This document shows, one piece after another, positions 34,798 through 59,998 of a DNA stretch of 64,000 bases (the stretch's first letter is position 1; every line of letters begins with the position of its first letter). The stretch lies in NCBI GenBank assembly GCA_040882645.1, contig JBBEAX010000085.1, forward strand, positions 55,933 to 119,932, given 5' to 3'. Position numbers and translations under genes: made by a program. This DNA is from Acidimicrobiia bacterium. Its GTDB lineage: Bacteria > Actinomycetota > Acidimicrobiia > Spongiisociales > UBA11373. The notes under the pieces are model-generated. The model did not search any database, was not told where the DNA came from, and worked only from the letters and a program-made list of their open reading frames with translations.

Positions 34798-35037
34798 CTG
34801 TCAGAAGATCGAGCCTTTCGGGACCCCTTACCCCTCCAAACGGTTGAGAGTCGGCGGTAGCCTCGGGGTGCCGACGAGGTGCCCGGAATCCACGCTACGG
34901 TGTTCAGCGAGGGTTCACGGGGTGCAGCCTGGCGCATTTCCCCCGAACTCCCCGGCATCTGCCCGAGAAGGCGCGAACACCCCGTCGTCACGCCGTCTGG
35001 TGCATATCGGTGCAGCGTCAGAACATTCAGTGCAGTC

Positions 35038-35092
35038 GTGTCGGAGAGAGGACTCGAACCTCCACACCCTTGCGGGCACTAGGCCCTCAACC
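35038..35092. repeat. distal att repeat: orphan 3' half of tRNA-Leu(GAG)
   Basis: gtgtcggagagaggactcgaacctccacacccttgcgggcactaggccctcaacc is identical to 59914-59968. The sequences diverge immediately after (gcgattt vs tagcgcg). Confidence 0.85.
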
Positions 35093-35343: not shown

Positions 35344-36960
35344 TTAGTCATCGATTCTCATCTCGCAGGATTCGCGTGGCTCAAGCCCAACGTAGGCACA
35401 CCGGTCGAAGTGGGCGCCACCAACGTACCTGTCAAAGCCGGACCCTCCGCAGAGCCAGTCGTCGCCTGCACTGCCTTGGAGCTTGTCTTTGCCTCGCAGC
35501 GCTTGGATCACGTCATTGGCGGATGTGCCTCTGATTCTGTCCTTGCCTCGAGTTCCCAGGAACGTGGCTGGCTGGCCTCCGCATGAGGCGTGAAGGGATC
35601 GTCCTGCTCCTAGCCTGATGTTGCTTTCGATCGCGTCCCGTGCTGCCGTGTTGGTTAAGACGCAGGAGTGGTCAAGGAGGTCCACTAGGCAACCGTCGTT
35701 GATGGTTGTGTTGAGCCATGCTCGGTTGTGGTGAGATACCGAGTTCGGGACCACTCGGTCTTGCTTGTTGCCGACGGTGGCGAAGAGTCTGGCCTTCGCC
35801 GGCGACAGTTTCCTGATCGCCTCGATCACGTCCGATCCAGGAACAAGGTCGTCGTAGCGTGGCGCGTAGCCCGCGCACCCATCCGCCCAGCCCAACTGGT
35901 TGGGGAGCAGGTTGGCCCAATCGGACCTCGGGCGACCCTTGAGCGGTGAGTCGAGGGCGGTCACCGACGCGAGGTTCCCCGGGTTCCAGGAGCTGAGCGC
36001 GTAGGCAACAACCACGCCGCCCATCGAGTGGGTGATGACGTGAACCTCGTCGCGACCGCCTGTGACGTTCTGGTACCAAGTGCGGAACCGCGCCGCGTGG
36101 CCCCCTGCTCCGTCGATCGACCCGCATGTGTCCTCGGCCGAGTAGCCAGGGCTGAAATCGTGGGCATAGCTGAAAGTGGCGATGTCGTCGGCCGAGAAAT
36201 CCGAGCCAAGGAATGTGCTGTCCGTTGACGCTTTGTCAAGCAGGAACATGCGGAGACGGTTCCACTCCTCCGGCGGATTCGCTGCGCTGCCCCAACTGCC
36301 GCCGAACTCGGTGTTCATCCCCTGAACGAAGATGACAAGGGGGTCCGGATCGACAAACCGGACAGTCACAGAGATCTGCTCCGCCAGACCGGTTTCGTCG
36401 TACCACCGACCAACGAACTCATGGTTGCCTGGAGCGAGGCCATCAGGCACATTGAAGAGATACTCGAGGTTCTTGTAGGGGTAGCTGCGCACACAATCCC
36501 ACGCATACCCGGTCAGGTCCTGCACCTTGCCGTCAATCTCAAGCTCAAAGCGTAAATCCGGCGGATAGGGCGAGAACTCAGCCACGCAGTCTTCGATCGT
36601 CGCACCCTCGTCCGTCGCCCAGCCATGCCTCACATGAAAGGGAGTCCAAGCTGGGAACTCGGTCGGTGGTGCGAGTAGATGCGGAAAGAACGGGTGCAGG
36701 GAGATGCGATCTCCCGCAGGATGAAAGTCAGTTGATACCTGCGCGGGCGCACCCGCGCCCACCGGTGCTGCGAACGCCAAGCCAACACCCAGAAGAAGCA
36801 GGGCCGTCAAAGTCGTCGCGACTCTTCTCACCACTCCCCCCGTCTCACGAGAACCATACGGCAACTGGTCCGGTCGGACCGCCCGCGGCGACGATGATAC
36901 TCCCAAGTCCTTCCCGTCGCTCGCCCACCCATACCCAGAGCTACTCAACGGAACACCCAC
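35344..36960 (-). CDS. secreted alpha/beta-hydrolase (lipase/esterase-like) with C-terminal RTX-like Ca-binding repeats
   Basis: 538 aa. Signal/TM segment TTLTALLLLGVGLAFAAPVGA. Nucleophile elbow VITHSMGG. C-terminal repeats GTRGKDRIRGTSANDVIQALRGKDKLQGSAGDDWLCGGSGFDRYVGG (GxxGxD type). The true start is probably downstream of 36960 (GTG near 36831-36834). Confidence 0.6.
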   Translation of the reverse strand: MGVPLSSSGYGWASDGKDLGVSSSPRAVRPDQLPYGSRETGGVVRRVATTLTALLLLGVGLAFAAPVGAGAPAQVSTDFHPAGDRISLHPFFPHLLAPPTEFPAWTPFHVRHGWATDEGATIEDCVAEFSPYPPDLRFELEIDGKVQDLTGYAWDCVRSYPYKNLEYLFNVPDGLAPGNHEFVGRWYDETGLAEQISVTVRFVDPDPLVIFVQGMNTEFGGSWGSAANPPEEWNRLRMFLLDKASTDSTFLGSDFSADDIATFSYAHDFSPGYSAEDTCGSIDGAGGHAARFRTWYQNVTGGRDEVHVITHSMGGVVVAYALSSWNPGNLASVTALDSPLKGRPRSDWANLLPNQLGWADGCAGYAPRYDDLVPGSDVIEAIRKLSPAKARLFATVGNKQDRVVPNSVSHHNRAWLNTTINDGCLVDLLDHSCVLTNTAARDAIESNIRLGAGRSLHASCGGQPATFLGTRGKDRIRGTSANDVIQALRGKDKLQGSAGDDWLCGGSGFDRYVGGAHFDRCAYVGLEPRESCEMRIDD

Positions 36961-37307
36961 TAGGCGCGCGGCCTAGCGGGATCGGATGCGACGACCGCGT
37001 CACGACGCCGTCCGGACCCATACCGACGACCTCCAGGTGCCACCCAGGTGCCGAAAGGAGTGCGTTCCCGGCGTAGCCCCGACCAGTCAGGTGGGTCCCC
37101 GGTGGCCGGGCTTTCGCTTGGAGGCCCCTCCCTTGGCTTCCCGTGAATTCGAGAGCTTGGTGGGCCTCCCGATACCCGACGATGATCGGAAGGGCTTCGG
37201 AAGTACCGGAGGGAGGCTCGGGTGACCTCGGAGTGACCCAACGGATCCGGTCACGTGAGGAGTGCGGGACACGTGCCCCTCGTGCGCGTCTTCTTGGGGA
37301 TGTCCTG
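36958..37307 (+). repeat. copy A of a ~350-bp non-coding direct repeat (possible structured RNA or recombination scar)
   Basis: Collinear with 47632-47987. In a 243-nt gap-free stretch I aligned by hand, 19 positions differ. Coordinates are +/-1 (see rejected notes). Confidence 0.8.
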
Positions 37308-37466
37308 TGACAAGCCTTGCATTCTCGCCATGATCTGTTGACACGGAGCGCCGCGGTATTGCCGAGTACCTTTTGTGTCGTGAAAGGGCCACGCACAGAT
37401 CGACCGCAGACCAATCGTGATACCGCTGAACTTGAACGGAAGCGAAGTCTGAGATCGGCGCCACAC

Positions 37467-38012
37467 ATGGCTCCCCTGACGGCTCACGTCGCTCGGATAC
37501 GAGCCGACCGGGGAGTGGACCGAGTTCCAGACTTCGACCCAACCGAAGCTGGTGTAGCCGCTCGGATCTTGCTTCTCTTCGAGGCACCGGGAGGCAAGGC
37601 GACAGTTGAGCGTGGGGGGTCCGGCTTCGTCTCACCCGACAACAACGACGCAACGGCGCAGAACATGTGGTACCTGCTCCGTGATGCCGGTGTCGACCGC
37701 CGAGTCGAAGTAGTGACCTGGAACGTGGTTCCCTGGTATGTAGGTGACGACCACAAAATAAGAAGGGTGGCGGCCGCGGATCTAAGAGAGGCGAGGCCCC
37801 ATGTCGAAGAGCTGCTCGGGCTGCTTCCCAACCTCGGTGTCGTCGTGCTCCTCGGAAAGAGAGCTCAGAAGGGCTGGTCCGGCATAGGAATGGAAGTTGC
37901 GTCGATCGGAGCGCCCCACCCCTCTCCGCAGAACCTGAACCCACGACCGCATCTCCGCGACGAGATCCTTCGGGCCCTAGAAAGTGCGCGGCGCCTCAGT
38001 AGGTTCGCGTAG
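37467..38012 (+). CDS. uracil-DNA glycosylase superfamily protein
   Basis: 181 aa from ATG 37467 (MAPLTAHVARIR...). LLLFEAPGGKA (GE(A/G)PG-like motif A). C-terminal GAPHPSPQNLN (HPSP motif B). Confidence 0.6.
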   Translation: MAPLTAHVARIRADRGVDRVPDFDPTEAGVAARILLLFEAPGGKATVERGGSGFVSPDNNDATAQNMWYLLRDAGVDRRVEVVTWNVVPWYVGDDHKIRRVAAADLREARPHVEELLGLLPNLGVVVLLGKRAQKGWSGIGMEVASIGAPHPSPQNLNPRPHLRDEILRALESARRLSRFA

Positions 38013-38403: not shown

Positions 38404-39993
38404 TCAGCGGGGTTTCAGCTGGGGTGAGGGGGGCCGACCTGAGGTACTGCGAACAGCGAAAAGGGGCCTAGGGCCCTCCACGCCTTTGAGTTTGTGCTCT
38501 CCAAGGGCGTCGAACTCGACGAGGTTGACCCCCTCAAGAAGGTCACGGGCCGTGCCAGTCACCACGATCTGATCGGGTTCTGCCGCACTCATCACTCGGT
38601 TTGCGATGTGCACTGCGAGGCCCGAGAGTTCTCCCTGATCCGTCCGATAGCTCCCCGCATGTATTCCGATCCGCAGATGAACGCCGAGCCGATCCGTCAC
38701 GTTGTCCCTTATCGCCCTGGCGCAAGAAATCGCGCTACCCGGTTCAGGAAACGTAGCCAAGAACCCGTCACCGGTCGGCCTTGCGTGTCTCCCGTGGAAA
38801 GACTGGATCTCGCTTGTCACCAGAGCTTGGAATTCCGACAGCACGCCGCTCCACGCGGCGTTGCCAAGACCCGAAACCGCGGGGGTCGAGTCGACTATGT
38901 CGGCGAACATGACAGTCCCCACTTGGTGGCTATCAACCATCGGTGCTGTTCGCATCGGATCGCCGTACATGAGGGATCGCTCCGCCTGCTTCAGGGCGAA
39001 GGACAGGCGCATGGCCGCTTCGGTCTCCATTCCCCGGTCGGGCCGCGTCACGTACTCGATGGGGTCTCGGAGAATCGGCCGAAGACCGCCCTCGGCAAAC
39101 TCGATGCCACCAGCCAGGTGAGGATTCTCAGCCGCTACGCCGCGGAGAAATGACGCAGCCGAGTAAACGCAGGTAGGCAAGTCGATGTTGTAAGCGCCCT
39201 TCGCGGTCTCTTCGCGGCTATCCCTCAGCACCACCTTGTCGTATCGGAGTTGCACGTTGACGTTGCCCTCTAGGTGACTCCCCGTACTTGCGACTCGCTC
39301 AAGGAACTGGCTGGCGAGCCCGTCGAACCCTGGCGGGCTGTACCTCAACATCGACAGGGCTGTCAGACCAAACGCAAGTTCGGCGAGCCCTAGGTTGCGT
39401 TTCGTCTCGAGATATCCAACAAGCCAGGAGGCGGCTCCCTGAATACGTCTTTCGAGATAGAGATTTGGGTCCTTCCGGAAGACGATCAGAGCGGACGCGG
39501 TAGCCAAGAAGGTCGGGTTGTTCTTCAAAGCGTGGTACCGAGAGTCGGGCCAACCCTCAAACCGGCCTGCGGCACCGACTTGGGATGCCTTAAGGTCCTC
39601 GATCCGCTGACGAATCGGCTGACCGCCAAGTGTGACTGTGGATGCCGCCTCCAGCGAGGCGCAGATGCGCGGAATGTCGTCGAGATGCCGTTCCATCGTG
39701 GCCCGTCGATCCGGCGCCCCGGACAACTCGCCGGCGAGATACCTGCGAGCGCCGACCATTTTTCGGCATGCCTCGTCGCTAGCGAGAAGTTCAGCCCCAG
39801 CGAGGTTCTTGAGCGCTATTAGCGCATAGGACGTGCCCCAAAGCCCTGGACCGTCCCCCTGGGATCCTTCCAGAGCCGTCCCCCACGCGTACTCTGTCTC
39901 ATTATCGTCCATCCACTCCCCGCCGTCGATCAGCTTCTCGGTCAACTCCTTCCTGACACCATGGATCACTTCCCAGTCCGCGCGCACGCTCAC
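38404..39993 (-). CDS. two-domain protein: N-terminal helical-repeat (alpha/alpha-toroid-like) domain plus C-terminal class III nucleotidyl cyclase domain
   Basis: 529 aa. The C-terminal ~180 aa has TVMFADIVDST, PTGDGFLATF, LRIGIHAGSY, GLAVHIANRV and KLKGVEGP. The N-terminus has repeated GLWGTSYALIALK / FLATASALIVF / LAFGLTALSML-type helices. Its GTG start overlaps the upstream TGA. Confidence 0.7.
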   Translation of the reverse strand: MSVRADWEVIHGVRKELTEKLIDGGEWMDDNETEYAWGTALEGSQGDGPGLWGTSYALIALKNLAGAELLASDEACRKMVGARRYLAGELSGAPDRRATMERHLDDIPRICASLEAASTVTLGGQPIRQRIEDLKASQVGAAGRFEGWPDSRYHALKNNPTFLATASALIVFRKDPNLYLERRIQGAASWLVGYLETKRNLGLAELAFGLTALSMLRYSPPGFDGLASQFLERVASTGSHLEGNVNVQLRYDKVVLRDSREETAKGAYNIDLPTCVYSAASFLRGVAAENPHLAGGIEFAEGGLRPILRDPIEYVTRPDRGMETEAAMRLSFALKQAERSLMYGDPMRTAPMVDSHQVGTVMFADIVDSTPAVSGLGNAAWSGVLSEFQALVTSEIQSFHGRHARPTGDGFLATFPEPGSAISCARAIRDNVTDRLGVHLRIGIHAGSYRTDQGELSGLAVHIANRVMSAAEPDQIVVTGTARDLLEGVNLVEFDALGEHKLKGVEGPRPLFAVRSTSGRPPSPQLKPR

Positions 39994-40721
39994 GCTGTCG
40001 ATCCTTGAATTTGGAAGCGGGCTACTAGGGCTGAGCGAAGCCGATCAAGCTCCTGTAGCTCGATGGTGTCGAAGATCCGAGATACGTCGCTCCTCGTCCG
40101 CCGCCAACAGAACTCAACCTCGCCGCCAGCTCGAGCCAGGAGACGTCTGAAGTATTGAGGTGTCACATCGCGAGCGGGGGGTTCGGCGAATAGGTACGAC
40201 GACCGATTCCGCCCTAGGTCGCCGAGCAATAGGTAACCGGAGCCCCGGTGCCGGTGCAGAACACTCTTCAGGTCGGGCAATCGCGCAACCTCATAATGGC
40301 TGCTGAAGGCTCGCACTAGGCTCGCTTCACGAGGAATGAGGTGGAGGTGCGCGTGGTCGATGCATGAGGACCTCGCAGCTCCGGACCCACAGTCTCCGTG
40401 CTCGAACACCATGAGCGAAAGCCCGGCCGCCTCATAGAGGTCCCTAGCCCGGTCGACAGCTTCCGCCAGAACCTCGACCTCCATTCCCCCGAGCATCGAA
40501 TCCGCATGCGCCCGGGGTATGAGGAGACAGTGCATCGAGCTAAGTGGGGCGATGTCCGGCAGCAACCGGAACCCGCCCCACTCCGCGAGGACCCGTGACT
40601 TCAATGGCCAGCTGGGGAAACGACGCGCGAAAGCCGATGTCGAATAGTCATTAAACTCGCTGCAGAAATGACACACCCGAGCCTGGCGCTCGGGAGCCGT
40701 TGAGGCACCGATCAGACGCAC
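39990..40721 (-). CDS. HIT (histidine triad) family nucleotide hydrolase/transferase
   Basis: 243 aa from GTG 40721 (GGGAGAGG upstream), one base after the upstream TGA. Histidine triad IDHAHLHLIP. N-terminal CHFC. Confidence 0.7.
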   Translation of the reverse strand: MRLIGASTAPERQARVCHFCSEFNDYSTSAFARRFPSWPLKSRVLAEWGGFRLLPDIAPLSSMHCLLIPRAHADSMLGGMEVEVLAEAVDRARDLYEAAGLSLMVFEHGDCGSGAARSSCIDHAHLHLIPREASLVRAFSSHYEVARLPDLKSVLHRHRGSGYLLLGDLGRNRSSYLFAEPPARDVTPQYFRRLLARAGGEVEFCWRRTRSDVSRIFDTIELQELDRLRSALVARFQIQGSTA

Positions 40722-40722
40722 G

Positions 40723-41784
40723 TCATGTGCCTCTCCCGAGTTGGAGTTCCTCGTCGATTGGCTTCGTCTGGTGATCCCAAACAACGCCCGGAAGTCGAGC
40801 CTCCATAACACCGGCAGCAGACCGGAACCGAACCCCGTCCTCTTGCGGGTGGATCGAACCAAGGCGTTGCACGTTTTCCGCGTCCGGCAGCAGCTCGGAC
40901 ACACTGGCATCCGGCGGCAACGTAAACACCAAACCGAAGTCAGCCGATCCACTGAGGGCAAGCGCGTACGGCGGGATTCCGGCGAGGTCAGCGACGCGCG
41001 CCACGACTGGGTGTGGCTCGAAGAGGGATGCGTCGACAACGGCTCCAACGCCGCTCATCGCGCAGATTTGAGAGACGGTCGCCTTAATGCCGTCAGAATT
41101 GTCCTGCGCTGCGATCCTCCAACCGGACGCCGCGAGCCCTTTCCCCACTTCAAGCTGCGGTCGCGGACGCCGCCAAGACTCCGCTAAAGCCATCTCCATG
41201 GAGCTTGGGAGGGAACCGAGTCGATCCTTGTTCCTAAAGTAGAGCACTGCCGCTCCAGCGAGTCCTGCGTCCCCCACGTAGAAGAGTTGGTCGCCCGGGA
41301 GACCATTTCGGCGCAGCAATGGTTGCGACGCAGTGAATCCGACGGCAGTCCCTGAGAGGACAAGCCGAGAGAATCCTCCGATGTCGCCGCCAACCACGGA
41401 TCCGGAGAACTCGTCGGCAGCTTCACGAATACCCAGGCATATCTCGACGAAGTCGGCGTCCGACAAATCGTCTGGGAAGCGGATATTCGTTGTCACGAAG
41501 CGCAGTTCGGCTCCCATCGCAGCCACATCGCTGGCGTTCGCGGCTACCAGGAAGTACCCCAGGTCGCGATACGACAGAATGCGGAGCTGGAACAGGTAGA
41601 ACTCCGCACCGCGGATGAAGTCGCTGCCCACCACTAAGTGTCCGCCTGGAATGGCGATAACCGCGCAGTCGTCTAGGGCGGTAACCCCTTCCACGAGCCG
41701 CAACGGCCCCTTGATGTCACGGCCGCGAGAGTCGTCGCCGAAAATGTCGGCGACGATCTTGAGAAACCCTGCCTCAGAACTCAT
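40723..41784 (-). CDS. PurM/ThiL-superfamily ATP-dependent enzyme (AIR-synthase-related, ThiL-like)
   Basis: 353 aa. Has the blocks ALDDCAVIAIPGGHLVVGSDF, AANASDVAAMGA and AAQDNSDGIKATV. These correspond to ThiL/PurM N- and C-domain signatures (DDAAV, TTD, DxSDGL). Confidence 0.65.
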   Translation of the reverse strand: MSSEAGFLKIVADIFGDDSRGRDIKGPLRLVEGVTALDDCAVIAIPGGHLVVGSDFIRGAEFYLFQLRILSYRDLGYFLVAANASDVAAMGAELRFVTTNIRFPDDLSDADFVEICLGIREAADEFSGSVVGGDIGGFSRLVLSGTAVGFTASQPLLRRNGLPGDQLFYVGDAGLAGAAVLYFRNKDRLGSLPSSMEMALAESWRRPRPQLEVGKGLAASGWRIAAQDNSDGIKATVSQICAMSGVGAVVDASLFEPHPVVARVADLAGIPPYALALSGSADFGLVFTLPPDASVSELLPDAENVQRLGSIHPQEDGVRFRSAAGVMEARLPGVVWDHQTKPIDEELQLGRGT

Positions 41785-41918: not shown

Positions 41919-42234
41919 CTTGGGCTGCCCCGGGAGCGTACACGCCACTCGCAATTGCCGTGGCGCTCAAGCCCCACTAGGTCTCGCACCCACTGCACCG
42001 TGCTGTCCGATGCTCGGCGATCCCGTGTTCCCTCAACAGCGAGTCTGACCGCACCCGAGTCTTCACGCGGCGCATCGCGGTGCCGCTCTGTGCGTCAGGC
42101 TGCCGCTTCGTGCGCGGGACGTCTGCTGCTCTCGCGTGCTCGAGGTGCTTGCGGGGTGCCACGGAAACGCCGTTGGGTTTCGGCCTGATCCTTGCGGGTG
42201 CGACGGGTACTGTCGCGCCACTCAACCGATCCCC

Positions 42235-45200
42235 ATGACCCGACAGTCACAACCCAGGACCATGAAGCATCTCGCAAGCACAATGACTGGCTTGCGCGAC
42301 CACCTAATCGTGGCTTCGGCAAGCCTGCAGTTGATCCCCAAGAACGCCACGAAGTGGGCGAGGTTCGAGAGACTCCTTGAACTCGCCTCATCGCTGCGAC
42401 CCGAAGATGTCCCCAAGCGAATGCCCAAGAACCTGCTGCGGAAACTCCTCACGTCGTCCCCCATAGCGACGCCCCAGATCATCTCTGGTGAAGTCCCCTT
42501 TGAGGAGCCCTTCGTGACGGTGATCACTTTCTTCGGGGGCAGCTACCGGGTCGTCTCAGGAGGGGCTTCAGCAGCAAGCGTTGGCTGCCAGCTGCTACTC
42601 GACGCAAGCCGCCTTCTTCCGGACGACGACGAGTCCACTGAGTTCAGGGAGCGGTTGTTCCTGGATGCCGAGATCGCTCTGAAGCTCTCTGATGCAGTGT
42701 GCGAGAGGGCTGGCCTCGGACGGTGGATGTCGCCGTCTCTCTCGCCCAAGTCCGAGGTGGTTATCCCGGCCAGTTCTGAGTTCGACCGCCTCGGCAAGGC
42801 CGTGACGTTCTCGCCGGACGACCTGGGTCGAGTGCTCGGAACTGCAGCAGAGTTCGTCGATGTGCTCATGGCCTCGGGACGGTTGGACTTGGTCGATCAT
42901 GACCAAAAGGGGCCGACCGATGATCGGATCTACCTATATCCGTTGGTTCGGACCTCGAGCGGCGATGTGATTGTGGCTCTCCCGAGCGGGCTCGCCGGAT
43001 CAATCATGCACCGAGGGTTGGCGCGAGCGGTTGAGCTGGGAATCGAGGAGAGGGTGGTCAATTCGCTCCACCGCGCGACGCAGATGTCACTTCGCCGCGC
43101 CTTCGCGCGAGTTCGTTGGTCGCGGGTTCAGGGTCCCAAGACGCTAGACAAGCCGGCCAACTTCCAGGAGACGTTCTATCGCTTCGATCTCGACAAGGTG
43201 GCGCATGTCGTTACAGTCATAGATCGTCTCGACGACTACGTCCCAGGTGAACCATTTGGCCATGCGGACTTCTCGTCGGTGCAAACCGAACTGCATCAGA
43301 GGTTTCCCGAGATCCGTTCGGCCGTCCGCTCACAGTCACCTGAGGTGTCGGTTCTTCATGTGGTGTGCAGTGCGCCCCTCGGCCGATCCCACTTCATGGG
43401 GTTCGAAGACACCTCTAGCGATGACACATCGGCCCTCCTCGCTGCGAGCTTGGACGACATCGATCTCATCGCCCGACTCGAGAAGTCCGATCGCCTGGCA
43501 CTGTGGAAGTTCGCTCTCGCTTCTAAGGAGCTCCACCGGCGGTCGCGCGTCTTGTCCTTCTCCACGTTCGACGAGTACGCCATCTACCGAGATCACGGTC
43601 ACAGCTACTACACGAGTGACGATCGTCACCCAACCTTCGTGTCAGTCCAACCCGGTTCCGGGGGCGACTTGAGAGTGAACGAACGCCAACGCATAGACCT
43701 TCACGCAGTTCCCCTGCCAGAGGGTGGGAACGTTGTTGAGGTGACTCGGTGGGCCGCCGACGATGCCACGCCCGTGTACCAACCCGACATGCCGGAGTTC
43801 CACCCGTATCACCGGGTCGAACTGCAGGTGCCTTGCTGGGTGATCCCCTCCCCAGAGGTGGCAGAGGAGGAGAGGCTGAGTGAGAAGTTCGCTGAGGCGA
43901 TCGCGTTCTGGCTCTGGCGCTGCGAGTCGCTTGTTGGATCCGCACTGGATCGGCTGTCCGGACGGTGGGAGAAGCTGATCGCAACAGTACGGGTTACCGA
44001 GCAGCGCCACGACCCGAGCGGGGATTCGGAACTGCACCCGGTGGCCGAATGGCTGCAGGTCGAACTTCGACCCTCGGAAGGTCGAGTGGACTTCCTGATC
44101 GCGGAGACCGCCAGGTACCGGTTGGCGCGCCCGGACAACGAAGCCGAGAGGGAGATCGCCATAGCGCTAGTCGAGGCAATCCATGACTTAGCAGGCGAGC
44201 GGCCAACGGGCCTGCGAGCACAGGTGAAACAGGCGATCCCAATCGGCGAGATGAGAATGATCCAGGTCCTGGACGAACGTGACGACGCTCTTCTGACGCT
44301 AGGTGAGATAGCTGAGCCACGACTCCTCCCGGACGCTGACGTGGAACTGCTGCTTGACTCACTCGGCGAATTCGCGTCGAGCGATCTGGGCCTTGCACAG
44401 GGCCCCATTCCATCAACTGGCCGGACTCAGGTACTGAATTCGATCGTGGAAGAGTTGTCCGATCAGCTCATGTCGGAGCTATCGGGGATAGAGCCGGACG
44501 GTCTCCTCGAGTACCTCACAGGAGAGAGAGAAGCTCTCCTCTTCTTGGAGGCGAGGGGTCGACTCACGCTCCCATCACTGGTTGCTTGCTTCGGTGAGCA
44601 ATCGTCCGGGGCACGAGAAGCGGTGGAGTCAGCGCAAGCGCTCGTTTCCACATCGGTGGCAAACCGCTATCTGCTGGAGGCCGCCACTGCGCGTCCCCCC
44701 GCAGGCGAGCGGCAGATGACGCTGAGCGTCTATGACCACCTGCTAGCCCTTGCCAACCAGATCATCCAATACGGGTTCATGAGCGACGCCATCCGGCACG
44801 AGCTGTCCTCCGTGGAGTTGTCAATCCTGCCTTCGGGGAGACTTGGGTCTAGCCGTGAAGAGCCGTACCTGGAAGCACTAGCGGCGTTTCGCGATATGAC
44901 CAAGAGCCGAGCCGTTAGTCATGCGCGTGAACGGTACGCAGCGCATTGGGGAGAACGAGATGAAGAGCCGATCGATTTCGACCCGACCGAAGTCGACGAG
45001 GCGTACCACCAGGAATTCGGTATCAGTGCAACTGATCTTGCCCACCTCACTGGCGATCTTGTCGAGCTAGCGCGGTCTGAGCGGTACCAAGTCGCGACTC
45101 GGGCGCTCGATGACCTCGGAAGTGAGCTGTGCAAGTCCCTGGGGTGGTCACGGGATCGTGTTCGCAGCGGGCTTCAACTGCTCTCATTGGATGAAGTCGC

Positions 45201-45981
45201 GGAATTTCCACGAGTCGCGAACCGGGCAGACGTCTACCCATGGCGTTACGGACGCAATCGCTCCGCTGCCCGGCGTCCGCTGTGCGTCCGCAGTAACCCA
45301 GCGGGTGATCTCGAAGCTGTTTGGGGAGCACGCGGCACGTACCGATCCGCCGGCTACCTGGTTGATCAAGTGAGATCGGGTCGGCTCAACGCGAAGTCGC
45401 GCGCTATGAAGCGGTACATCACATCGGTACGCCAAGCCGGCAACGACGCTTTCAGGGGCGATGTCGCTGAGTTCTTCAGGGGGCTTGGCTACAGCGATGT
45501 CCGAGAGGACGTGAAGAAGTTTGGCCAATTCCGGCTACGTCGACCCAACGGAGAGGATCTCGGCGACGTGGATGTCTTGGTCATCGACCGGGCGCGGAAG
45601 GTACTGCTCGCGACCGAGGTGAAGGACTTCGAGTTCGCGCGAACGCCCGCCGAGCTCAGCCATGAACTCGACAAGCTGCTCGACGGGCCGCGATCAGCCG
45701 CCCACCACCATGGGGAGCGACTCGACGCAATCAAGCGGGACCTACCCCGCTTGTTGGAAGGGCTCGATGCATCGGACTCGGACGAAGACTGGGAAGTCCG
45801 CGGTCTGATAGTCACTAGTGCTGACCTGATTACCAGCCGATTCCCGAAGGCGCAGAGGCTAAGCCACGGGTTGACAGTGACGCCGTATGAGTTGCTGCAG
45901 AACAAGGGCCAAGGGGAGCTGACAGGCAGTGCGAGCAAGTCGACCGCCACGAAGAAGCGGAAAGGTCGCCGCCGCCGGTAG
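42235..45981 (+). CDS. ~1,250-aa orphan protein with C-terminal PD-(D/E)xK-like nuclease motif and basic tail
   Basis: Track ORF 42136..45981. ATG 42235 (or 42262) is the likeliest start, but there is no strong RBS. C-terminus: GDVDVLVIDRARKVLLATEVKD (D...E-x-K). It ends with KKRKGRRRR. I saw no P-loop or helicase motifs. Confidence 0.55.
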   Translation: MTRQSQPRTMKHLASTMTGLRDHLIVASASLQLIPKNATKWARFERLLELASSLRPEDVPKRMPKNLLRKLLTSSPIATPQIISGEVPFEEPFVTVITFFGGSYRVVSGGASAASVGCQLLLDASRLLPDDDESTEFRERLFLDAEIALKLSDAVCERAGLGRWMSPSLSPKSEVVIPASSEFDRLGKAVTFSPDDLGRVLGTAAEFVDVLMASGRLDLVDHDQKGPTDDRIYLYPLVRTSSGDVIVALPSGLAGSIMHRGLARAVELGIEERVVNSLHRATQMSLRRAFARVRWSRVQGPKTLDKPANFQETFYRFDLDKVAHVVTVIDRLDDYVPGEPFGHADFSSVQTELHQRFPEIRSAVRSQSPEVSVLHVVCSAPLGRSHFMGFEDTSSDDTSALLAASLDDIDLIARLEKSDRLALWKFALASKELHRRSRVLSFSTFDEYAIYRDHGHSYYTSDDRHPTFVSVQPGSGGDLRVNERQRIDLHAVPLPEGGNVVEVTRWAADDATPVYQPDMPEFHPYHRVELQVPCWVIPSPEVAEEERLSEKFAEAIAFWLWRCESLVGSALDRLSGRWEKLIATVRVTEQRHDPSGDSELHPVAEWLQVELRPSEGRVDFLIAETARYRLARPDNEAEREIAIALVEAIHDLAGERPTGLRAQVKQAIPIGEMRMIQVLDERDDALLTLGEIAEPRLLPDADVELLLDSLGEFASSDLGLAQGPIPSTGRTQVLNSIVEELSDQLMSELSGIEPDGLLEYLTGEREALLFLEARGRLTLPSLVACFGEQSSGAREAVESAQALVSTSVANRYLLEAATARPPAGERQMTLSVYDHLLALANQIIQYGFMSDAIRHELSSVELSILPSGRLGSSREEPYLEALAAFRDMTKSRAVSHARERYAAHWGERDEEPIDFDPTEVDEAYHQEFGISATDLAHLTGDLVELARSERYQVATRALDDLGSELCKSLGWSRDRVRSGLQLLSLDEVAEFPRVANRADVYPWRYGRNRSAARRPLCVRSNPAGDLEAVWGARGTYRSAGYLVDQVRSGRLNAKSRAMKRYITSVRQAGNDAFRGDVAEFFRGLGYSDVREDVKKFGQFRLRRPNGEDLGDVDVLVIDRARKVLLATEVKDFEFARTPAELSHELDKLLDGPRSAAHHHGERLDAIKRDLPRLLEGLDASDSDEDWEVRGLIVTSADLITSRFPKAQRLSHGLTVTPYELLQNKGQGELTGSASKSTATKKRKGRRRR

Positions 45982-46359
45982 TCGCAGAGCGGTGAGGTGC
46001 GAGCATTCACGTTTGCCTCGGCCCACCAGGTAGGCGACCTCGTGGAATCGAACACCGGGTCCGCGTAACGACGTGGCTCGAAGTGCTCGAGGGAGCACCG
46101 AAGTGCCACCCGGGTGCCATCGCAACATCCTCACTCCGCGTCCACGAGTGGCACAGGAGCACTCCAGGTGGCAAAACTGACGTTGCGCTTCCGCTCGATC
46201 GATCGCGCCGAGTGTGATTCGCGAACTCCCTGGTGCTACGTTCCGCGGGTGGTCTTTCCACCACCCCGGAAAGGTGAGGACTTGGAGGTCAAGCGTGAGG
46301 CCCTTGGCTTCTCGTATTGGCCGATGCGGAGATCCACAAGGAGATGGGGGCTCCACACG

Positions 46360-47376
46360 ATGGCCTACGCCACCGATCCCTGGGGAGTGATCGACACCGC
46401 GGTAGTTGCGCACTTTGACGGTACCGACCGCGAGACACCCCGCTCATTCGTCCGCCAGGCGAGAGAGTACGTTCGGGCAGCAGACGGGGCTGAAGCGTAC
46501 GAGGCCAAGCCCGTCCTCTACTACTACGGCTTCCTGAACCTCGCCAAGGCGCTCAGCCTGATGCGGGACGGCTCCACCTTGCTCCGCTCCCGAGTTCATC
46601 ACGGCCTAAAGGTGATTTCGGCGGCTGGTGCCAAGATCCAAAGCGCCGAGCTCCAGGCCTCTCGGTCCTCGAGTGCGAGTGCAAGCGCGTTCGCCGAGCT
46701 ATTTGCCGCACTCACCGGAGGGGCGCTTGGATCCGACCCAGTTGTCCGGCTCGAAGAAGTCATGTCCCAGATTGTCGTGGGCCACCGGCTTTGGCGAGAG
46801 GTCGGGTCCCGGAAGGAACGGTTCATCGGCGTTAGCGAGGTGCGCGTACACCACGACCCATCCGCGCACGAGATCTGGGCAACGATTCTTCTGCCAAAGG
46901 ACACCCTCGATCGAAGAGGAAGATCGGTCGCCGAGGTTCTGCGCGAGTCAGGCCTCGGTGCTGACTGGCGGGCGGTTGAGAACACCGAGGACAACGCCGG
47001 GAGAGACTGCCGACGGCTAGAGCTCACAACTCCCGTGTCATACACGGGGCGCCACTCAGACGTCGTGATGGAGTTGGTTGACAGGGTACGACCGAACCTC
47101 TGGCGAACGATAACGACCACGCCTCCGTACCGCCGGTACTACCTGTACCTGGCTCCAACTGGTGAGACCCGATGGCCGCAACTCGCGAGTGCCTACGCGC
47201 TGATGTTCTACCTCGGCCACCTCACGAGGTATACACCAACGGACTTCATCTCGTCCCTGGACGATACCTACGGGTCCTTCATCCGCGAGTTCCTTGCATC
47301 CCAACCTGGCCAATTCCTATTCGAGATGGCATGCGAGTTCAGGCGGCAGGAGGTAACGAAGGCTGGCATCACCTAG
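46360..47376 (+). CDS. YaaC-like protein (tentative)
   Basis: 338 aa from ATG 46360 (MAYATDPWGV...). The block AKPVLYYYGFLNLAKALSLM and the C-terminal FYLGHLTRYTP resemble the YaaC-like family. Start uncertain. Confidence 0.45.
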   Translation: MAYATDPWGVIDTAVVAHFDGTDRETPRSFVRQAREYVRAADGAEAYEAKPVLYYYGFLNLAKALSLMRDGSTLLRSRVHHGLKVISAAGAKIQSAELQASRSSSASASAFAELFAALTGGALGSDPVVRLEEVMSQIVVGHRLWREVGSRKERFIGVSEVRVHHDPSAHEIWATILLPKDTLDRRGRSVAEVLRESGLGADWRAVENTEDNAGRDCRRLELTTPVSYTGRHSDVVMELVDRVRPNLWRTITTTPPYRRYYLYLAPTGETRWPQLASAYALMFYLGHLTRYTPTDFISSLDDTYGSFIREFLASQPGQFLFEMACEFRRQEVTKAGIT

Positions 47377-47631: not shown

Positions 47632-47987
47632 CCACTAGGCACCCGACCTAGTGGCATCGGATGCGACGACCGCGTCACGACGCCGTCCAGACCCGTGCCG
47701 ACGACCCCCAGGTGCCACCCAGGTGCCGAGAGGAATGCGTTCCCGGCGTAGCGCCGACCAGGCAGGTGGCTCCCCGGCGGCCGGACTCTCGCTTGGAAGC
47801 CCCTCCCTTGGCTTCCCGTGAATTCGAGAACTTGGTGGGCCTCCCGATACCCGACGATGATCGGAAGGGCTTCGGAAGTACCGGGGAGGGGCTCCGGTGA
47901 CCTCGGAGAGAATCGACAGATCGGGTGCGTGAGGATCGCGGTGCACGTGCCCCTCGCGCGGGCGTTTTCTTTTTGGGGGGATGTCCC
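47632..47987 (+). repeat. copy B of the ~350-bp non-coding direct repeat
   Basis: See copy A. Begins with hairpin CCACTAGG cacccga CCTAGTGG. Ends with a GCACGTGC palindrome, a short GC stem and TTTTCTTTTT. Confidence 0.8.
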
Positions 47988-48159: not shown

Positions 48160-49467
48160 GTGCCCGAGGCTATGTTGCCGCAATGGATGACGTGTGTGCC
48201 CCCGAGCGTCCAACATCGATGGCGGGCCTGGCGTATGGGTAACCCTCGATTCTGCGGCATCTCACTGCTCGAGGACTCGGGGCGCCTCAACGCCGGAGCG
48301 GCTTTCGAGCTTGCGTCCGCCCCGCGACGAGATGCAGCTGTGAACCTCGGCAGCGCCACCGTTGCTGTGGCAGCCGGGAAGCCAGTTGTGGTGGTCAGGT
48401 GCGCTGGAACCTCGCATGAGGAGGCCCGGGCTACTGGTCTCAGGCTGGCCGATCAGGGGCTTGACCTCCTCGCGATTCGCGGACTTGAGAATCTATCGAT
48501 CAAGGGTATCGACGAGGAGCACCTCACCTGGTGGCCCGATCAGCAGGGTCTTGTGATCCGACTGGTCTCAATTGCGCCCCTGCGCATAGATGTTCCACCA
48601 GTGAGGGCGACCGTTCTAGATAAAGAGGGAAACGAGGTCGCGTCGGCGCCAGAACCCGAACCGGACTGGCACGAGAGCTTCAGGTATTTCCGGCTCTCGC
48701 AGGTCTCTGAAGACCTCTTCGATGCCTTCCGGAATGCCTACCTAGCTCTCGAATCGATGCTGAGCGACATTGCCCCCCAGCAAACCAAGGGCGACAAGAT
48801 TGCCGAACCGGAGGGCAGCTGGTTTCGCCGGGCGCTCGTGGAGGCTGACAAGAAACTCGCGCTTGTCGACTTCGCTCCAGCTGGAACCTCGGATCCGGTG
48901 GATCATCTCTTTCGAGAGCTGTACATCGACATGAGATCGGCCATGTCGCATGCCAAGAGCGGGAGGAAGGTGTTGCTTCCGCGCAATGAGGTCGAGCGCG
49001 CGGCGGTCACAGCCAGCCTTGGGCGATTGGTGCAGCTCTATCTCGCGTTGGCGAAGGAGCACCTGGGTGCGAGGCGTCGAGGAGGTGGCATGTTCGCAGC
49101 GGGATTCCGAATGATGAACAAGCCCCTTCTCGGCAGAATGGAGGTGTTCGCGAGTGACGATCCAAGCTCATTCGACCCAACATCCACCAGCCTGAACCCT
49201 GCAGGAGGGGAACTTGTTCGGCTCACTAGCTCTGAGGATCTCGATGACGCTACGCCGTTCGTGCTGACGCGTTTGTATTGGAGCACCGCCAAGTCGCTGA
49301 AATCTCTGTCAGCAGTCCGACGCGTGGGAGGAGCAGTTGACGGCGCTCCGGCGATGGCTTCAGTGTTGGAAGGGGATCTTGAGCTTGGTCTGGCGTCACG
49401 TTTTGAGGTCTTGCTGGGGACCCGTGGAGTGAACCTCAATCAGCCGCGAACTCGGTACCTGTACTAG
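48160..49467 (+). CDS. hypothetical protein with a possible R-x4-H (HEPN-like) motif
   Basis: 435-aa ORF. The central helical region is WHESFRYFRLSQVSEDLFDAFRNAYLALESML ... LFRELYIDMRSAMSHAKSG. Start uncertain (GTG 48160, ATG 48172/48187/48235). Confidence 0.4.
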   Translation: MPEAMLPQWMTCVPPSVQHRWRAWRMGNPRFCGISLLEDSGRLNAGAAFELASAPRRDAAVNLGSATVAVAAGKPVVVVRCAGTSHEEARATGLRLADQGLDLLAIRGLENLSIKGIDEEHLTWWPDQQGLVIRLVSIAPLRIDVPPVRATVLDKEGNEVASAPEPEPDWHESFRYFRLSQVSEDLFDAFRNAYLALESMLSDIAPQQTKGDKIAEPEGSWFRRALVEADKKLALVDFAPAGTSDPVDHLFRELYIDMRSAMSHAKSGRKVLLPRNEVERAAVTASLGRLVQLYLALAKEHLGARRRGGGMFAAGFRMMNKPLLGRMEVFASDDPSSFDPTSTSLNPAGGELVRLTSSEDLDDATPFVLTRLYWSTAKSLKSLSAVRRVGGAVDGAPAMASVLEGDLELGLASRFEVLLGTRGVNLNQPRTRYLY

Positions 49468-49883: not shown

Positions 49884-50108
49884 CTATTTGAGGAGGGCGC
49901 TGGCGGGTAGGCCGAGGCCGTCGGCGATCCTTTCGAGGGTGGCGAGGCTGATGTTGCGTTCAGCTCGTTCGATGCCGCCGATGTAGGTGCGATGCAGTCC
50001 GCAACGCAGAGCGAGTTCTTCCTGGGAGATGCCGAGCTCCTGGCGACGGGTAGCGACAGCGTCGGCAAGGCGGCGGTGGAGGTACTGGGGCGCGCGGCGG
50101 CGGGGCAC
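49884..50108 (-). CDS. XRE-family helix-turn-helix transcriptional regulator
   Basis: 74 aa. RRQELGISQEELALRCGLHRTYIGGIERAERNISLATLERIADGL is a canonical HTH_3 pattern. Confidence 0.85.
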   Translation of the reverse strand: MPRRRAPQYLHRRLADAVATRRQELGISQEELALRCGLHRTYIGGIERAERNISLATLERIADGLGLPASALLK

Positions 50109-50866: not shown

Positions 50867-52048
50867 TCAGGACACGACGCGTAGCCTCGACGGCGGCGGA
50901 AGGGGCGGCGAATCGGCTGAGTGAATGGCGTCTGAGACGCGGGTGACGGCATCGGCTTGGAGGCTGGGGATCACGTGGCTGTAGGTGTCAAGGGTGATGC
51001 TGATGCTGGCGTGGCCGAGCTGTTCGGAGACCACCTTGGGATTCACGCCTTCTTGGAGCGCGATGGTCGCCCAGGTGTGCCGCAGGTCGTGGAGCCGTAT
51101 ACGGCGTAGTCCTGCCTGCTCGCAGATGCGTCGGAATTGATTGGTGACCCGGTCAGGGCGCAGCGGGCCACCGTCCGGGTGAGCGAACACCAGCTGCCGT
51201 GCCGTCTCGTTGGCGTGTGAGCGGAGGTCGGCAAGCACGGCGATAGTGCGGTCGTCGAGGTAGACCCTTCGGGCTGAGCGCCGTGTCTTGGGTGACCCGA
51301 TCACCGGGTTGCCTCTCTGGAGGACGACGGTTTGGGTGATGGCGAGCCATCCCGCTTCGAGATTGACGTCGCTCCAGCGGATTCCGAGGATCTCGCTGCG
51401 GCGCATCCCCGTAGTCCCCGCCAGACGCCAAAGCGCTTCACGTTCGTCGCCCTCGACCACGCTCAGAAAGGCGCGGACCTCATGGGGTTGCCACGGGTCC
51501 TGGACCTTGGGGCCTACAGATGTCGACGGGGGCGAGGCCGAAGCCGCCGGGTTGTCGCGCAGCAGACCCCACCGCACCGCGTCCCCGAACGCTCGGCGGA
51601 GCACCACATGGGCGTTGCGGATCGTCTTGGGTGCCAGCGGCCCACCTGACCGTGAGCCCCGGTCGGCGAGAATGGCATACAACTGGTTGATGTCACGGGG
51701 ACCGACCTGCTGAAGCCGCATCACCCCGATGTGAGGCACGATGTGGCACTCGATCGCCGACCGATACGAGTCGACAGTGTTCCCCCGTACTACCCGAGCA
51801 TGATTCGAAAGCCACTCCCCCAGCAGGAAGTCCCCCACTGTGATCAGGCTGCGGTCGACCCGGGACCCGGACTCTAACTCGACGAGCTCCCCACGGAGCG
51901 CAGCCTCGGCCTCCCGTTTCGTCGTAAACCCCCGCCGGGTCTTCCGAGCCCGTCTGCCAGTCGCCAGATCGCCGCCGACCTCGATGACGTAACCCCACGA
52001 CACACCCGACTTGGTACCACGACCCGACACGTGCCCCGAGTAAGTCAT
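50867..52048 (-). CDS. tyrosine-type site-specific integrase
   Basis: 393 aa from ATG 52048, with AAGGAG 9 nt upstream. C-terminal catalytic region: RLHDLRHTWATIALQEGVNPKVVSEQLGHASISITLDTYSHV (R...HxxR...Y). Confidence 0.9.
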   Translation of the reverse strand: MTYSGHVSGRGTKSGVSWGYVIEVGGDLATGRRARKTRRGFTTKREAEAALRGELVELESGSRVDRSLITVGDFLLGEWLSNHARVVRGNTVDSYRSAIECHIVPHIGVMRLQQVGPRDINQLYAILADRGSRSGGPLAPKTIRNAHVVLRRAFGDAVRWGLLRDNPAASASPPSTSVGPKVQDPWQPHEVRAFLSVVEGDEREALWRLAGTTGMRRSEILGIRWSDVNLEAGWLAITQTVVLQRGNPVIGSPKTRRSARRVYLDDRTIAVLADLRSHANETARQLVFAHPDGGPLRPDRVTNQFRRICEQAGLRRIRLHDLRHTWATIALQEGVNPKVVSEQLGHASISITLDTYSHVIPSLQADAVTRVSDAIHSADSPPLPPPSRLRVVS

Positions 52049-52256
52049 GCCGCCCCGCTCCTTGGCGGACAGACTCCCGGGTGTCGGGACCGTCGATGCG
52101 ACGCTGACGCTATCACACCATATTTTACCAGGGGGGGTCTTGACGAACAAGCCGAGCTGTGGCCGTTAGAGCTGATGGATCTGGGGGGTCCGGGCTGGGT
52201 TTCCTCCGATGCCGCGTGCGGGTGCGATGGAAGCGTTGGAGGCGATTGAAGGGTTG

Positions 52257-53865: not shown

Positions 53866-54034
53866 GGACCCTTGATACCGCCCGAACCGAGAATCGTGTA
53901 ACACACCCCCCACGCTGCCGGAGGTCAAGCAGGGAACACACCAACACGAACCCGGCCACCGCTCGTCGCGCGATCGCTCAAATGCCAAGGGAACCGCGCT
54001 ACTGAAGGGGCGGCCTCATCAAGGATCTCGGTGA

Positions 54035-57000: not shown

Positions 57001-57046
57001 TGAAGGCACCATACGAGGCACACTTGCTGTGGCACAGGGGGGTTGA
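54035..57046 (+). CDS. res: Type III restriction enzyme, Res subunit (SF2 helicase plus C-terminal endonuclease)
   Basis: 1003 aa. Walker A MATGSGKTVVMVML, DEAH box VLNDEAHHCY, TEGWDANTVTHILG, and C-terminal YVPDFIAVLDG...VVEVSGENRRDKEAK (PD...ExK-like). Confidence 0.8.
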   Translation: MGKVPGVAFLGRDLEATALGRDTRIDNPILNSPFDAPTRHFRFDDEGITSEKVDGRRPSSYFVPIPATKKKKGQAAFDTEWTADRVEPNPTINRIRERVDMWRQGGWPHVTPTSRRLLEYWTDPERERKLFHAQVEALETAIYIAEVATKVGDAWIPNMLAEASANANPGVSRLSHKMATGSGKTVVMVMLIAWQTLNKAASPQDARFTDRFLVVTPGITIRDRLRVILPSDPNNYYRERDVVPPELREHLGRARIVITNFHAFQLRAKQQLSKIHKALVPEGAFVESPDEMVRRVTRELGSSSKQIVVLNDEAHHCYRSKPDSLPDEPKLVGDDRKEAETREKEARVWLSGLEAVQAKIGIKAVYDLSATPFFLRGSGYPEGTLFPWVVSDFSLIDAIEAGVVKVPRVPVADDQMTGDGVAYRDLWLRIRDHLPKKGRKASDTETPVMPPELDGALHSLYSDYKKRHRLWEKSEARQHDGSTPPVFIVVCNNTAVSKMVYDWIAGREVPGPDGTAVVQSGELKIFSNADRGEWLHRPNTILIDSKQLESGEAMSAEFKAVAALEIGEFKREMRQRFPGSDPDAVSDEDLLREVMNTVGKPGRLGEHVKCVVSVSMLTEGWDANTVTHILGVRAFSTQLLCEQVIGRGLRRRSYTLNDHGHFDPEYAEVYGVPFSFIPAAGQTKEITPGPMPTRVRALPDRADRAITFPRVIGYRYRLAGERLAATFGPEHQITLSARDVPTKVEVAGIVGETGIHELDDLKEWRMQQVEFAIARRLAMRYFRAESDADKPWLFPQLLRIVREWIGSAVHLADGAFLQMLRIGRYESDALDKIYRAIAASDDGDLLVEAVLQPGDATGTTAFVDFDTTKPVYATDAAKSHVSHVVGDSGWEHKMAQVLEAMAEVDRYVKNQGLGFAIPYTIDGQQRSYVPDFIAVLDGDLHLVVEVSGENRRDKEAKVSTARELWVPAVNRHGGFGRWGFVEVTDPWDAEGTIRGTLAVAQGG

Positions 57047-59913: not shown

Positions 59914-59998
<85 letters not shown>

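Follow-up and report, generated by a model that had tools for sequence, protein, structure and literature searches.

A probable divergent full-length member of the Upx anti-phage family in a tRNA-Leu island of an Acidimicrobiia MAG

The biggest ORF in the 64-kb window (the whole stretch of Acidimicrobiia DNA analysed here, 64,000 nucleotides) raises the question of what kind of protein it encodes, and whether that protein acts alone or together with a divergently transcribed AIRS-like/HIT/cyclase gene triad. The ORF (42136-45981, + strand) runs without interruption for 1281 codons counted from GTG, in agreement with an earlier note on this DNA that had described it as the largest ORF, on the plus strand. 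Although the mechanical ORF opens at GTG 42136, the likely start is ATG 42262 (M43), as in gene call L009, which yields a gene at 42262..45981 (+) and a protein of 1239 aa. Alternative starts are ATG 42235 (M34) and TTG 42292, the latter used in GenBank call P0001, under locus tag WEE36_09245, to give 1229 aa; a conserved 'LA......RD' stretch located 5' of TTG 42292 is kept in the homologue consensus. The AIRS-like gene of the triad starts at 41784 (-), leaving a spacer of 450, 477 or 507 bp depending on whether the start is ATG 42235, ATG 42262 or TTG 42292, respectively, so the 450-bp spacer noted earlier matches the first of these. A promoter/terminator consensus scan around the gene found nothing above shuffles, and such a scan is uninformative for Actinomycetota. 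A disrupted ORF was ruled out by the uninterrupted frame and the family-typical length.

Several findings indicate that the gene product very probably belongs to the Upx family, whose discovery is reportedly due to Gao et al. 2020, as a divergent member of full length, and that the gene is cargo of a tRNA-Leu island and acts independently of the triad. The window protein matched the PADLOC Upx model PDLC02221 (E 1.8e-29, aa 564-1180) as well as the NCBIfam model Upx_antiphage NF042954 (E 2.2e-35). The latter match is significant, but its 121 bits lie far under the equivalog threshold of 1900 bits, a cut-off set for proteins closely related to the enterobacterial one; the window protein is thus a distant family member and not an equivalog by NCBI's rule. 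Pfam PF28173 'Upx-like' is precomputed for P0001, which is an identical protein, and for all 37 homologues. Local Pfam-A searches with the whole protein (E<=0.01) and with its isolated N-terminal, middle and C-terminal pieces (E<=10) gave no domain because that copy of Pfam-A did not report PF28173, and the earlier remark that no motif could be recognised by eye was accordingly a fair one.

Comparison with the solved Upx of Salmonella enterica NCTC6026 (SeUpx, 9wuf; PMC13099982) extended these matches over the full length. The window protein aligned to 9wuf_A by phmmer in two collinear blocks (E 3.9e-23), and a clade profile aligned to it in one stretch (E 5.8e-85), profile positions 14-1173 corresponding to SeUpx 44-1229. 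An exhaustive search with the single window protein as query retrieved 2011 cluster representatives at E<=1e-3, 845 of them at E<=1e-30; the best 150 of the 2011 were nearly all full-length (about 1200-1280 aa). Iterating the word-indexed homologue search from the clade alignment contributed only 5 further sequences. The distribution is patchy and crosses phyla, and one homologue, L016 from Pyrinomonadaceae, shares 31% identity with the window protein. The label 'orphan' given previously can therefore be dropped, and the N-terminal region, which had been called unannotatable, aligns to the Upx N-terminal domain and corresponds to the Upx sensor domain.

The predicted structure points the same way. 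An AF2 model of the window protein (pLDDT 88.5, pTM 0.86) superposed over its full length on 9wuf (Foldseek E 2.3e-44, TM 0.74/0.73, 1296 columns, 19% identity), which was the sole significant match in the PDB. Weak, non-significant matches to FokI, N.BspD6I, XisH and Vsr are attributable to the generic PD-(D/E)xK fold. The SeUpx domain limits (NTD 1-515, MD 516-714, CTD 715-1272, with a nuclease core at 1121-1272; PMC13099982) were carried over to the window protein. The N-terminal domain (NTD; 42262..43695, +, ~aa 43-520), a putative terminase sensor, contains the first phmmer block (query 54-290 against SeUpx 49-273). The middle domain (MD; 43696..44277, +, ~aa 521-714) remains collinear with SeUpx (query 639 with SeUpx 639, query 736 with SeUpx 737); the boundaries of both domains are approximate. 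The C-terminal domain (CTD; 44278..45978, +, ~aa 715-1281) contains an invariant YPWRxxRxxSxxRRPL motif (45235-45282, +) and the PD-(D/E)xK nuclease core (45442..45885, +, ~aa 1103-1250), for which the model gives an alpha-beta-beta-beta-alpha-beta topology. Its elements in model numbering, to which 52 is added to obtain ORF numbering, are helix 1037-1064, strands 1069-1074, 1093-1099 and 1104-1111, helix 1119-1130 and strand 1168-1175. The structural check proposed in the earlier note thus bears out its view of a PD-(D/E)xK fold at the C terminus behind a large sensor region.

The catalytic motif GDVDVLVIDRARKVLLATEVKD occupies 45562..45627 (+; aa 1143-1164). Residues D1144, D1146, E1161 and K1163 align to D1159, D1161, E1176 and K1178 of SeUpx in the 9wuf_A alignment, and in the AF2 model D1146 opens beta2 while E1161 and K1163 lie in beta3. 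The catalytic D, E and K are invariant in the 31-sequence clade; among 169 relatives, D and K are each present in all 169 and E in 166, the other 3 having D. The motif had been written before as D-x15-E-V-K, which is right as to its presence and off in a trivial way as to its spacing, this being D-x14-ExK from the catalytic D1146 and D-x16 from D1144. Taken together, the window protein and SeUpx share a similar length (1239 versus 1272 aa), a monomer-type NTD-MD-CTD fold that is collinear from residue ~44 to ~1229, identical D...ExK residues, the YPWRxxRxxS motif and a single-gene organisation. They differ in their low sequence identity, in the missed equivalog cut-off, in two N-terminal residues discussed below, and in the polybasic C-terminal tail and Acidimicrobiia host of the window clade.

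The mechanism we propose is carried over from studies of Upx homologues sharing as little as 16% identity (PMC13601566, PMC13099982). Terminase-triggered, nuclease-dependent toxicity and phage defence are on record for SeUpx, HpUpx (Hydrobacter penzbergensis) and PbUpx (Pyrinomonadaceae bacterium) only, and the latter two are divergent proteins with 16% identity to SeUpx that sense diverse large terminases (PMC13601566). Since HpUpx and PbUpx still sense terminases at 16% identity, function is retained at such divergence. By homology, the NTD and MD of the window protein probably sense phage large terminase, after which the C-terminal PD-(D/E)xK nuclease would trigger toxicity. Specifically, the NTD/MD scaffold would bind the ATPase domain of the terminase, partly unfolded, by beta-augmentation; binding would release the C-terminal Mg-dependent nuclease; and the released nuclease would bring about toxicity or abortive infection, with accumulation of the phage genome being blocked. 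The C-terminal nuclease of SeUpx is a 3'-5' ssDNA exonuclease in vitro.

The trigger of Upx is disputed in the literature, with gp16 and large terminase as the contenders. The dual-nuclease model of Zhou et al. 2026 assigns nuclease activity to the NTD as well as the CTD and has a gp16-like phage ejection protein relieve the inhibition that the MD exerts on the NTD. The three-domain fold shared with SeUpx would be compatible with such an arrangement. However, the five residues of the 'atypical' nuclease site described in the NTD of SeUpx (D122, D127, R129, E147 and D173) correspond in the window protein to T131, S136, R138, D156 and D186: R129 and D173 are unchanged and E147 has given way to Asp, a conservative substitution, whereas D122 and D127 have become Thr and Ser, so the site as reported is incomplete here. 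The same holds across 169 relatives, in which the D122 position is acidic in 0% and the D127 position in 5%, indicating that the N-terminal site is a feature of SeUpx and does not define the family. Moreover, Evans et al. (PMC13601566) saw no toxicity with gp16 and identified terminase as the only activator. We consider the dual-nuclease model unlikely for the window protein. Given the absence of the acidic N-terminal residues, it is most likely a sensor-effector with a single nuclease, and, on the same residue comparison, the family-wide loss of the SeUpx N-terminal acidic site would imply that the dual-nuclease model does not extend to Upx as a whole. These findings bear on the disagreement between the two 2026 papers, since residue conservation favours the NTD as a sensor over a general second nuclease.

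We likewise asked whether this Upx copy has begun to decay or has changed in function, for example as inactive cargo. V120 (GTC, nt 42493) replaces the Asp of a 'GEDP' motif that is kept in 164 of 169 relatives (97%), and this substitution might affect the function of the protein. In addition, the gene is known from a MAG only; a second assembly has the identical sequence and may stem from one and the same sample. Against decay, the frame is intact, the length is typical of the family and the AF2 model is confident; all C-terminal catalytic residues are present, as are 34 of 34 clade-invariant columns in an alignment that includes the window sequence. We therefore regard decay as quite unlikely, and favour a full-length Upx member.

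This Upx gene resides in an island of ~24.9 kb integrated at tRNA-Leu(GAG) (59914..59998, -). The distal att repeat (35038..35063, +) matches the 3' end of the tRNA-Leu exactly over 26 nt, with 0 such copies expected by chance, and sits inside a 113-nt repeat at 34980-35092 (family D2). A tyrosine integrase (50867..52150, -; Pfam Phage_integrase, SAM_3 and Arm-DNA-bind_4) belongs to the context and lies outside the Upx mechanism; the island also carries a type III R-M system, a GC dip spans 34-50 kb of the window, and Rfam reported tRNA only on the island. A direct repeat of ~330 nt, present in two copies, brackets the triad, a UDG-family gene, Upx and a YaaC-like gene. Elsewhere, the neighbours of Upx vary over 7 contexts (integrase/TrwC/R-M, transposases), with integrase homologues adjoining Upx in 9 other fetched loci, and there was no conserved neighbour across the 7 contexts and the fetched loci. 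Upx is thus shown to be a single-gene system with variable neighbours in mobile/defence islands, in keeping with the earlier idea of a stand-alone defence protein in a mobile or defence context.

Two readings would tie Upx to the triad. If Upx, the triad, the UDG-family gene and the YaaC-like gene formed one co-mobilised cassette, a nucleotide product of the triad could modulate or back up Upx, and a terminase sensor would then be overlaid with a novel level of signalling; we consider this very unlikely. The earlier note had raised the idea of a nuclease effector possibly gated by the product of the neighbouring cyclase operon; such CBASS- or Pycsar-like gating would use a nucleotide, cyclic or modified, from the divergent AIRS-like/HIT/cyclase operon. 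The triad is indeed adjacent and divergent, about 450-500 bp off, its overlapping gene ends give it the look of one operon, and together with Upx and YaaC it falls between the two repeat copies. However, homologues of AIRS, HIT, cyclase and YaaC were absent within +/-10 kb of Upx in every other fetched locus, so the co-occurrence that had been suggested as a check was not found. When the model of the window protein is superposed on SeUpx along the whole chain, no additional domain of the SAVED, CARF or cNMP-binding type is seen, and neither Pfam nor PADLOC reported a nucleotide-sensing domain of these kinds; furthermore, Upx homologues provide defence in E. coli by themselves (PMC13601566). 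The full-length cyclase matched only itself, ~30% of it, a C-terminal cyclase domain, matching LipJ-like proteins, and the AIRS-like gene had no close relative among metagenome contigs. Since both lack detectable relatives, the triad does not recur as a partner of anything else and looks unique. A literature search for a role of YaaC in defence returned nothing relevant. Gating of Upx by the triad is accordingly highly improbable.

A Shedu (SduA, DUF4263), NERD or Mrr-type stand-alone nuclease, to which the earlier note had likened the protein, also places a PD-(D/E)xK effector in a stand-alone defence protein and shares the generic D...ExK core, but is extremely improbable here given its other architecture and sensor, the lack of any sequence or profile match (of the HMM searches suggested earlier, Upx models matched while DUF4263, NERD and Mrr_cat went unmatched in Pfam, even with the isolated CTD at E<=10), the report of Upx alone by PADLOC, which we assume to include Shedu models, and the full-length fold match to Upx alone.

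The window protein can thus be placed among Upx proteins, for which Avs2 provides a functional analogue: both are single-protein sensors of large terminase coupled to an effector that leads to cell death. Avs2 is an antiviral STAND NTPase that combines a STAND ATPase with a TPR sensor and forms tetramers. In contrast, Upx lacks an NTPase motif (by Pfam and PADLOC), and the two are without homology. Since Upx is a family with an established definition, a solved structure and published work on its mechanism (PMC13099982, PMC13601566), our assignment amounts to routine annotation and does not reveal a novel type of system. It nevertheless allows a 1239-aa 'hypothetical protein' of an Acidimicrobiia MAG to be named as an Upx-like anti-phage sensor-nuclease, and the same naming fits 36 metagenomic homologues and plasmid-borne relatives, all of which are now unnamed or labelled hypothetical. 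Upx, for which tests have covered Proteobacteria, Bacteroidota and Acidobacteriota only, would thereby be extended into Actinomycetota. A minor novelty is the clade-specific C-terminal tail (45919..45978, +), a small structural variant in which 'LTG' is followed by the polybasic KKRKGRRRR that had been noticed earlier and is located at aa 1273-1281. Such tails occur in 24 of the 31 clade members, being missing from the 7 most distant, and may have a putative role in nucleic-acid binding.

Upx is reportedly a family first found by Gao et al. in 2020. As papers of 2026 already describe both its structure and its trigger (PMC13099982, PMC13601566), the protein encoded by the plus-strand ORF at 42136-45981 is a further member of an already known family. 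Its wider interest is limited to a second nuclease site that is not conserved family-wide, together with an unexplained neighboring triad of genes and a ~330-nt repeat.

As the earlier note had it, this ORF is the longest in the window; it is uninterrupted over 1281 codons counted from GTG 42136, from which residues are numbered here. The GenBank entry identical to the protein (P0001, 'MAG: hypothetical protein WEE36_09245 [Acidimicrobiia bacterium]', 1229 aa) starts at TTG 42292, and a second assembly (L009), identical to the window across 10.5 kb, has it called as 1239 aa from ATG 42262. Because a conserved 'LA......RD' stretch in the homologue consensus precedes the TTG, sequence conservation makes ATG 42262 or ATG 42235 the more likely start. 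With ATG 42235, the 450-bp spacer described earlier to the divergent AIRS-like gene (minus strand, start 41784) is exact. The C-terminal D...ExK motif and basic tail are likewise both there, as GDVDVLVIDRARKVLLATEVKD (aa 1143-1164) and KKRKGRRRR (aa 1273-1281).

Three independent family models (PADLOC, NCBIfam and Pfam) name the protein Upx. The PADLOC model matched with an E-value of 1.8e-29, and NCBIfam NF042954 'anti-phage protein Upx' with 2.2e-35 and 121 bits, a score that does not reach the equivalog cut-off of 1900 bits. The precomputed Pfam family PF28173 'Upx-like' is on P0001 and on 37/37 retrieved homologues. The protein is thus an Upx member at the family level, not at the NCBI equivalog level. 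Local Pfam-A returned no domain for the whole protein or its separate pieces; this absence, together with the PADLOC assignment to Upx, ruled out the Shedu-like, NERD or Mrr-like identity entertained before.

A single-sequence search of the PDB gave one match, the cryo-EM structure of Salmonella Upx (SeUpx; 9wuf_A), at an E-value of 3.9e-23 and in two collinear blocks (residues 54-290 with SeUpx 49-273, and 639-1181 with 639-1196). A profile built from the clade alignment (31 sequences) joined these into one continuous stretch (profile 14-1173 with residues 44-1229; E 5.8e-85). SeUpx is divided into an N-terminal (NTD, 1-515), a middle (MD, 516-714) and a C-terminal domain (CTD, 715-1272) (PMC13099982). 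AlphaFold2, run on residues 53-1252 with the clade alignment, gave a confident model (mean pLDDT 88.5, pTM 0.86), which Foldseek matched significantly to a single PDB entry, again 9wuf (E 2.3e-44, TM 0.74/0.73, 19% identity over 1296 columns). The weak remaining matches, to FokI, N.BspD6I, XisH and Vsr, reflect the generic PD-(D/E)xK fold, the core of which is present at the C-terminus of the model. Taken together, the sequence, profile and Foldseek matches show that the Upx architecture spans the entire protein, including the ~1100 N-terminal residues. That these residues had seemed unannotatable by eye is understandable, since local Pfam-A was blank; as a description of the region it did not hold.

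Residues D1146, E1161 and K1163 align with SeUpx D1161, E1176 and K1178 and are invariant across the 31-sequence clade. Among 169 full-length relatives, D and K are each present in 169/169 and E in 166/169, the other 3 having D. The modelled core runs alpha-beta-beta-beta-alpha-beta, as in the canonical restriction-endonuclease fold, with D1146 opening beta2 and E1161 and K1163 inside beta3. Also invariant, and common to SeUpx, is the motif YPWRxxRxxSxxRRPL (aa 1034-1049). The 'atypical' second nuclease site described in the SeUpx NTD comprises five residues (D122, D127, R129, E147 and D173), which correspond to T/S/R/D/D here. In contrast to the invariant C-terminal D/E/K, positions D122 and D127 are almost never acidic, being so in none and in 5% of the 169 relatives, respectively, a finding that bears on the 'dual nuclease' status of Upx, on which published accounts disagree. 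We also observed that the Asp of a 'GEDP' motif (SeUpx D111), present in 164/169 relatives, is replaced by Val120 (GTC, 42493-42495), with the same codon in L009.

SeUpx is a monomer with Mg-dependent 3'-5' ssDNA exonuclease activity, and its E1176A/K1178A mutant loses defence (PMC13099982). Evans et al. reported that diverse phage large terminases trigger SeUpx and its homologues HpUpx (Hydrobacter penzbergensis) and PbUpx (a Pyrinomonadaceae bacterium) alike, despite identities down to 16%; the terminase ATPase domain suffices as trigger, and the ExK motif is needed for toxicity (PMC13601566). These authors contest an earlier gp16 trigger, and their AlphaFold 3 prediction threads unfolded terminase beta-strands through the N-terminal sensor via beta-augmentation (PMC13601566). 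Because the full-length fold is conserved and the C-terminal catalytic residues are invariant, the best-supported reading by analogy is that our protein works as its published homologues do: its NTD/MD scaffold would sense phage terminase and activate the C-terminal nuclease, leading to abortive infection. In contrast to SeUpx, to which it is 19% identical, it lacks the NTD acidic site, so a single active nuclease is expected. It further differs from the tested members in coming from another phylum and in bearing a polybasic C-terminal tail, which is found in 24/31 clade members and missing from more distant ones.

Far from being an orphan, as first supposed, the protein had 2011 relatives (E<=1e-3) when 1.84 billion cluster representatives were searched exhaustively with phmmer; 1478 of them passed E<=1e-10 and 845 passed E<=1e-30. 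The best 150 of the 2011 are nearly all full-length and collinear, at about 1200-1280 aa. Species-representative genomes with relatives belong to Actinomycetota (Acidimicrobiia, Thermoleophilia), Acidobacteriota (including a Pyrinomonadaceae MAG protein, 31% identity), Chloroflexota, Planctomycetota, Myxococcota, Bacteroidota and Burkholderiales. Plasmid-borne relatives occur in Deinococcus, Clostridium, Bosea, Sinorhizobium and Salmonella, annotated as 'hypothetical protein' wherever a product is listed. Such patchy occurrence is typical of defence genes that move horizontally.

Consistent with the mobile or defence setting anticipated for homologues, seven homologue contexts placed Upx-like genes beside integrase/excisionase/TrwC elements with restriction-modification (R-M) cargo, transposases or unrelated genes, and 9 of 40 fetched loci contained integrase homologues by tblastn. 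Homologues with 56-57% identity occupy the same element-edge position in two loci (L001, 5113-13747; L007, 3790-11673). There, an integrase/HTH_17 excisionase/TrwC-relaxase element is inserted beside PFK and Haem_bd genes, and its R-M cargo differs, being type I in L001 but EcoRV-like with Vsr in L007. The shared position suggests that a conserved integrative mobilisable element spreads this Upx clade.

The divergent minus-strand triad (38404-41784) consists of genes for an AIRS/ThiL-like protein of 353 aa, a HIT-like protein of 243 aa (from 40721) and a class III cyclase of 529 aa; because the gene ends overlap, it looks like one operon. The earlier note suggested that the cyclase product might gate the nuclease. 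Pfam (whole and pieces), PADLOC and Foldseek of the model revealed no nucleotide-sensing domain in Upx. Moreover, AIRS, HIT, a similar cyclase and YaaC are absent from all seven homologue contexts, and tblastn of all window neighbors against the 40 loci found the triad, the YaaC-like gene and the 435-aa ORF in L009 alone, a record of the same genome. Neither the gating nor a recurrent linkage to the triad found support, and the most plausible reading of the adjacency is coincidence between items of island cargo. The full-length cyclase matched only itself, and neither the ~350 N-terminal residues of the cyclase nor the AIRS-like protein had detectable relatives in the databases searched; the AIRS-like gene likewise had no close relative among metagenome contigs. 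This operon may deserve its own study.

The island is integrated at tRNA-Leu(GAG) (59914-59998, minus strand), whose exact 26-nt 3' end recurs at 35038-35063 (0 matches expected by chance) inside a 113-nt direct repeat that is 87% identical. It is thus repeat-delimited (35038-59939, about 24.9 kb), with a GC dip relative to its flanks. Besides the triad and Upx, it carries RTX/alpha-beta-hydrolase, DUF429 and tyrosine integrase genes, a 484-aa ORF of no assigned family, a plus-strand UDG-superfamily gene (37317-38012; PF03167, E 1.9e-9; called likewise in L009), a minus-strand 74-aa HTH gene resembling R-M control (C) proteins (49884-50108), and a plus-strand type III R-M pair (54035-59661) of res (ResIII helicase-type) and mod (919 bits to PADLOC MTase_III). 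A minus-strand ORF overlapping res (53999-55918) is probably spurious. A 285-aa minus-strand ORF (37087-37944) had no family match, and the UDG-superfamily gene is most likely the real one there. Downstream of Upx, on the plus strand, lie the YaaC-like gene (46114-47376; PF14175, E 1e-28) and the 435-aa ORF (48160-49467; no family match), neither of which matched PADLOC or adjoins other Upx homologues. We also observed two copies of a ~330-nt direct repeat, at 36957-37286 and 47632-47960, which are about 91% identical and both intergenic; the window has no others. It matches no Rfam family and opens with a short CCTAG/CTAGG palindrome, and candidate explanations are a MITE, a recombination scar or a regulatory element. 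The 10.7-kb segment that its copies flank contains Upx and the triad as well as the UDG-family and YaaC-like genes.
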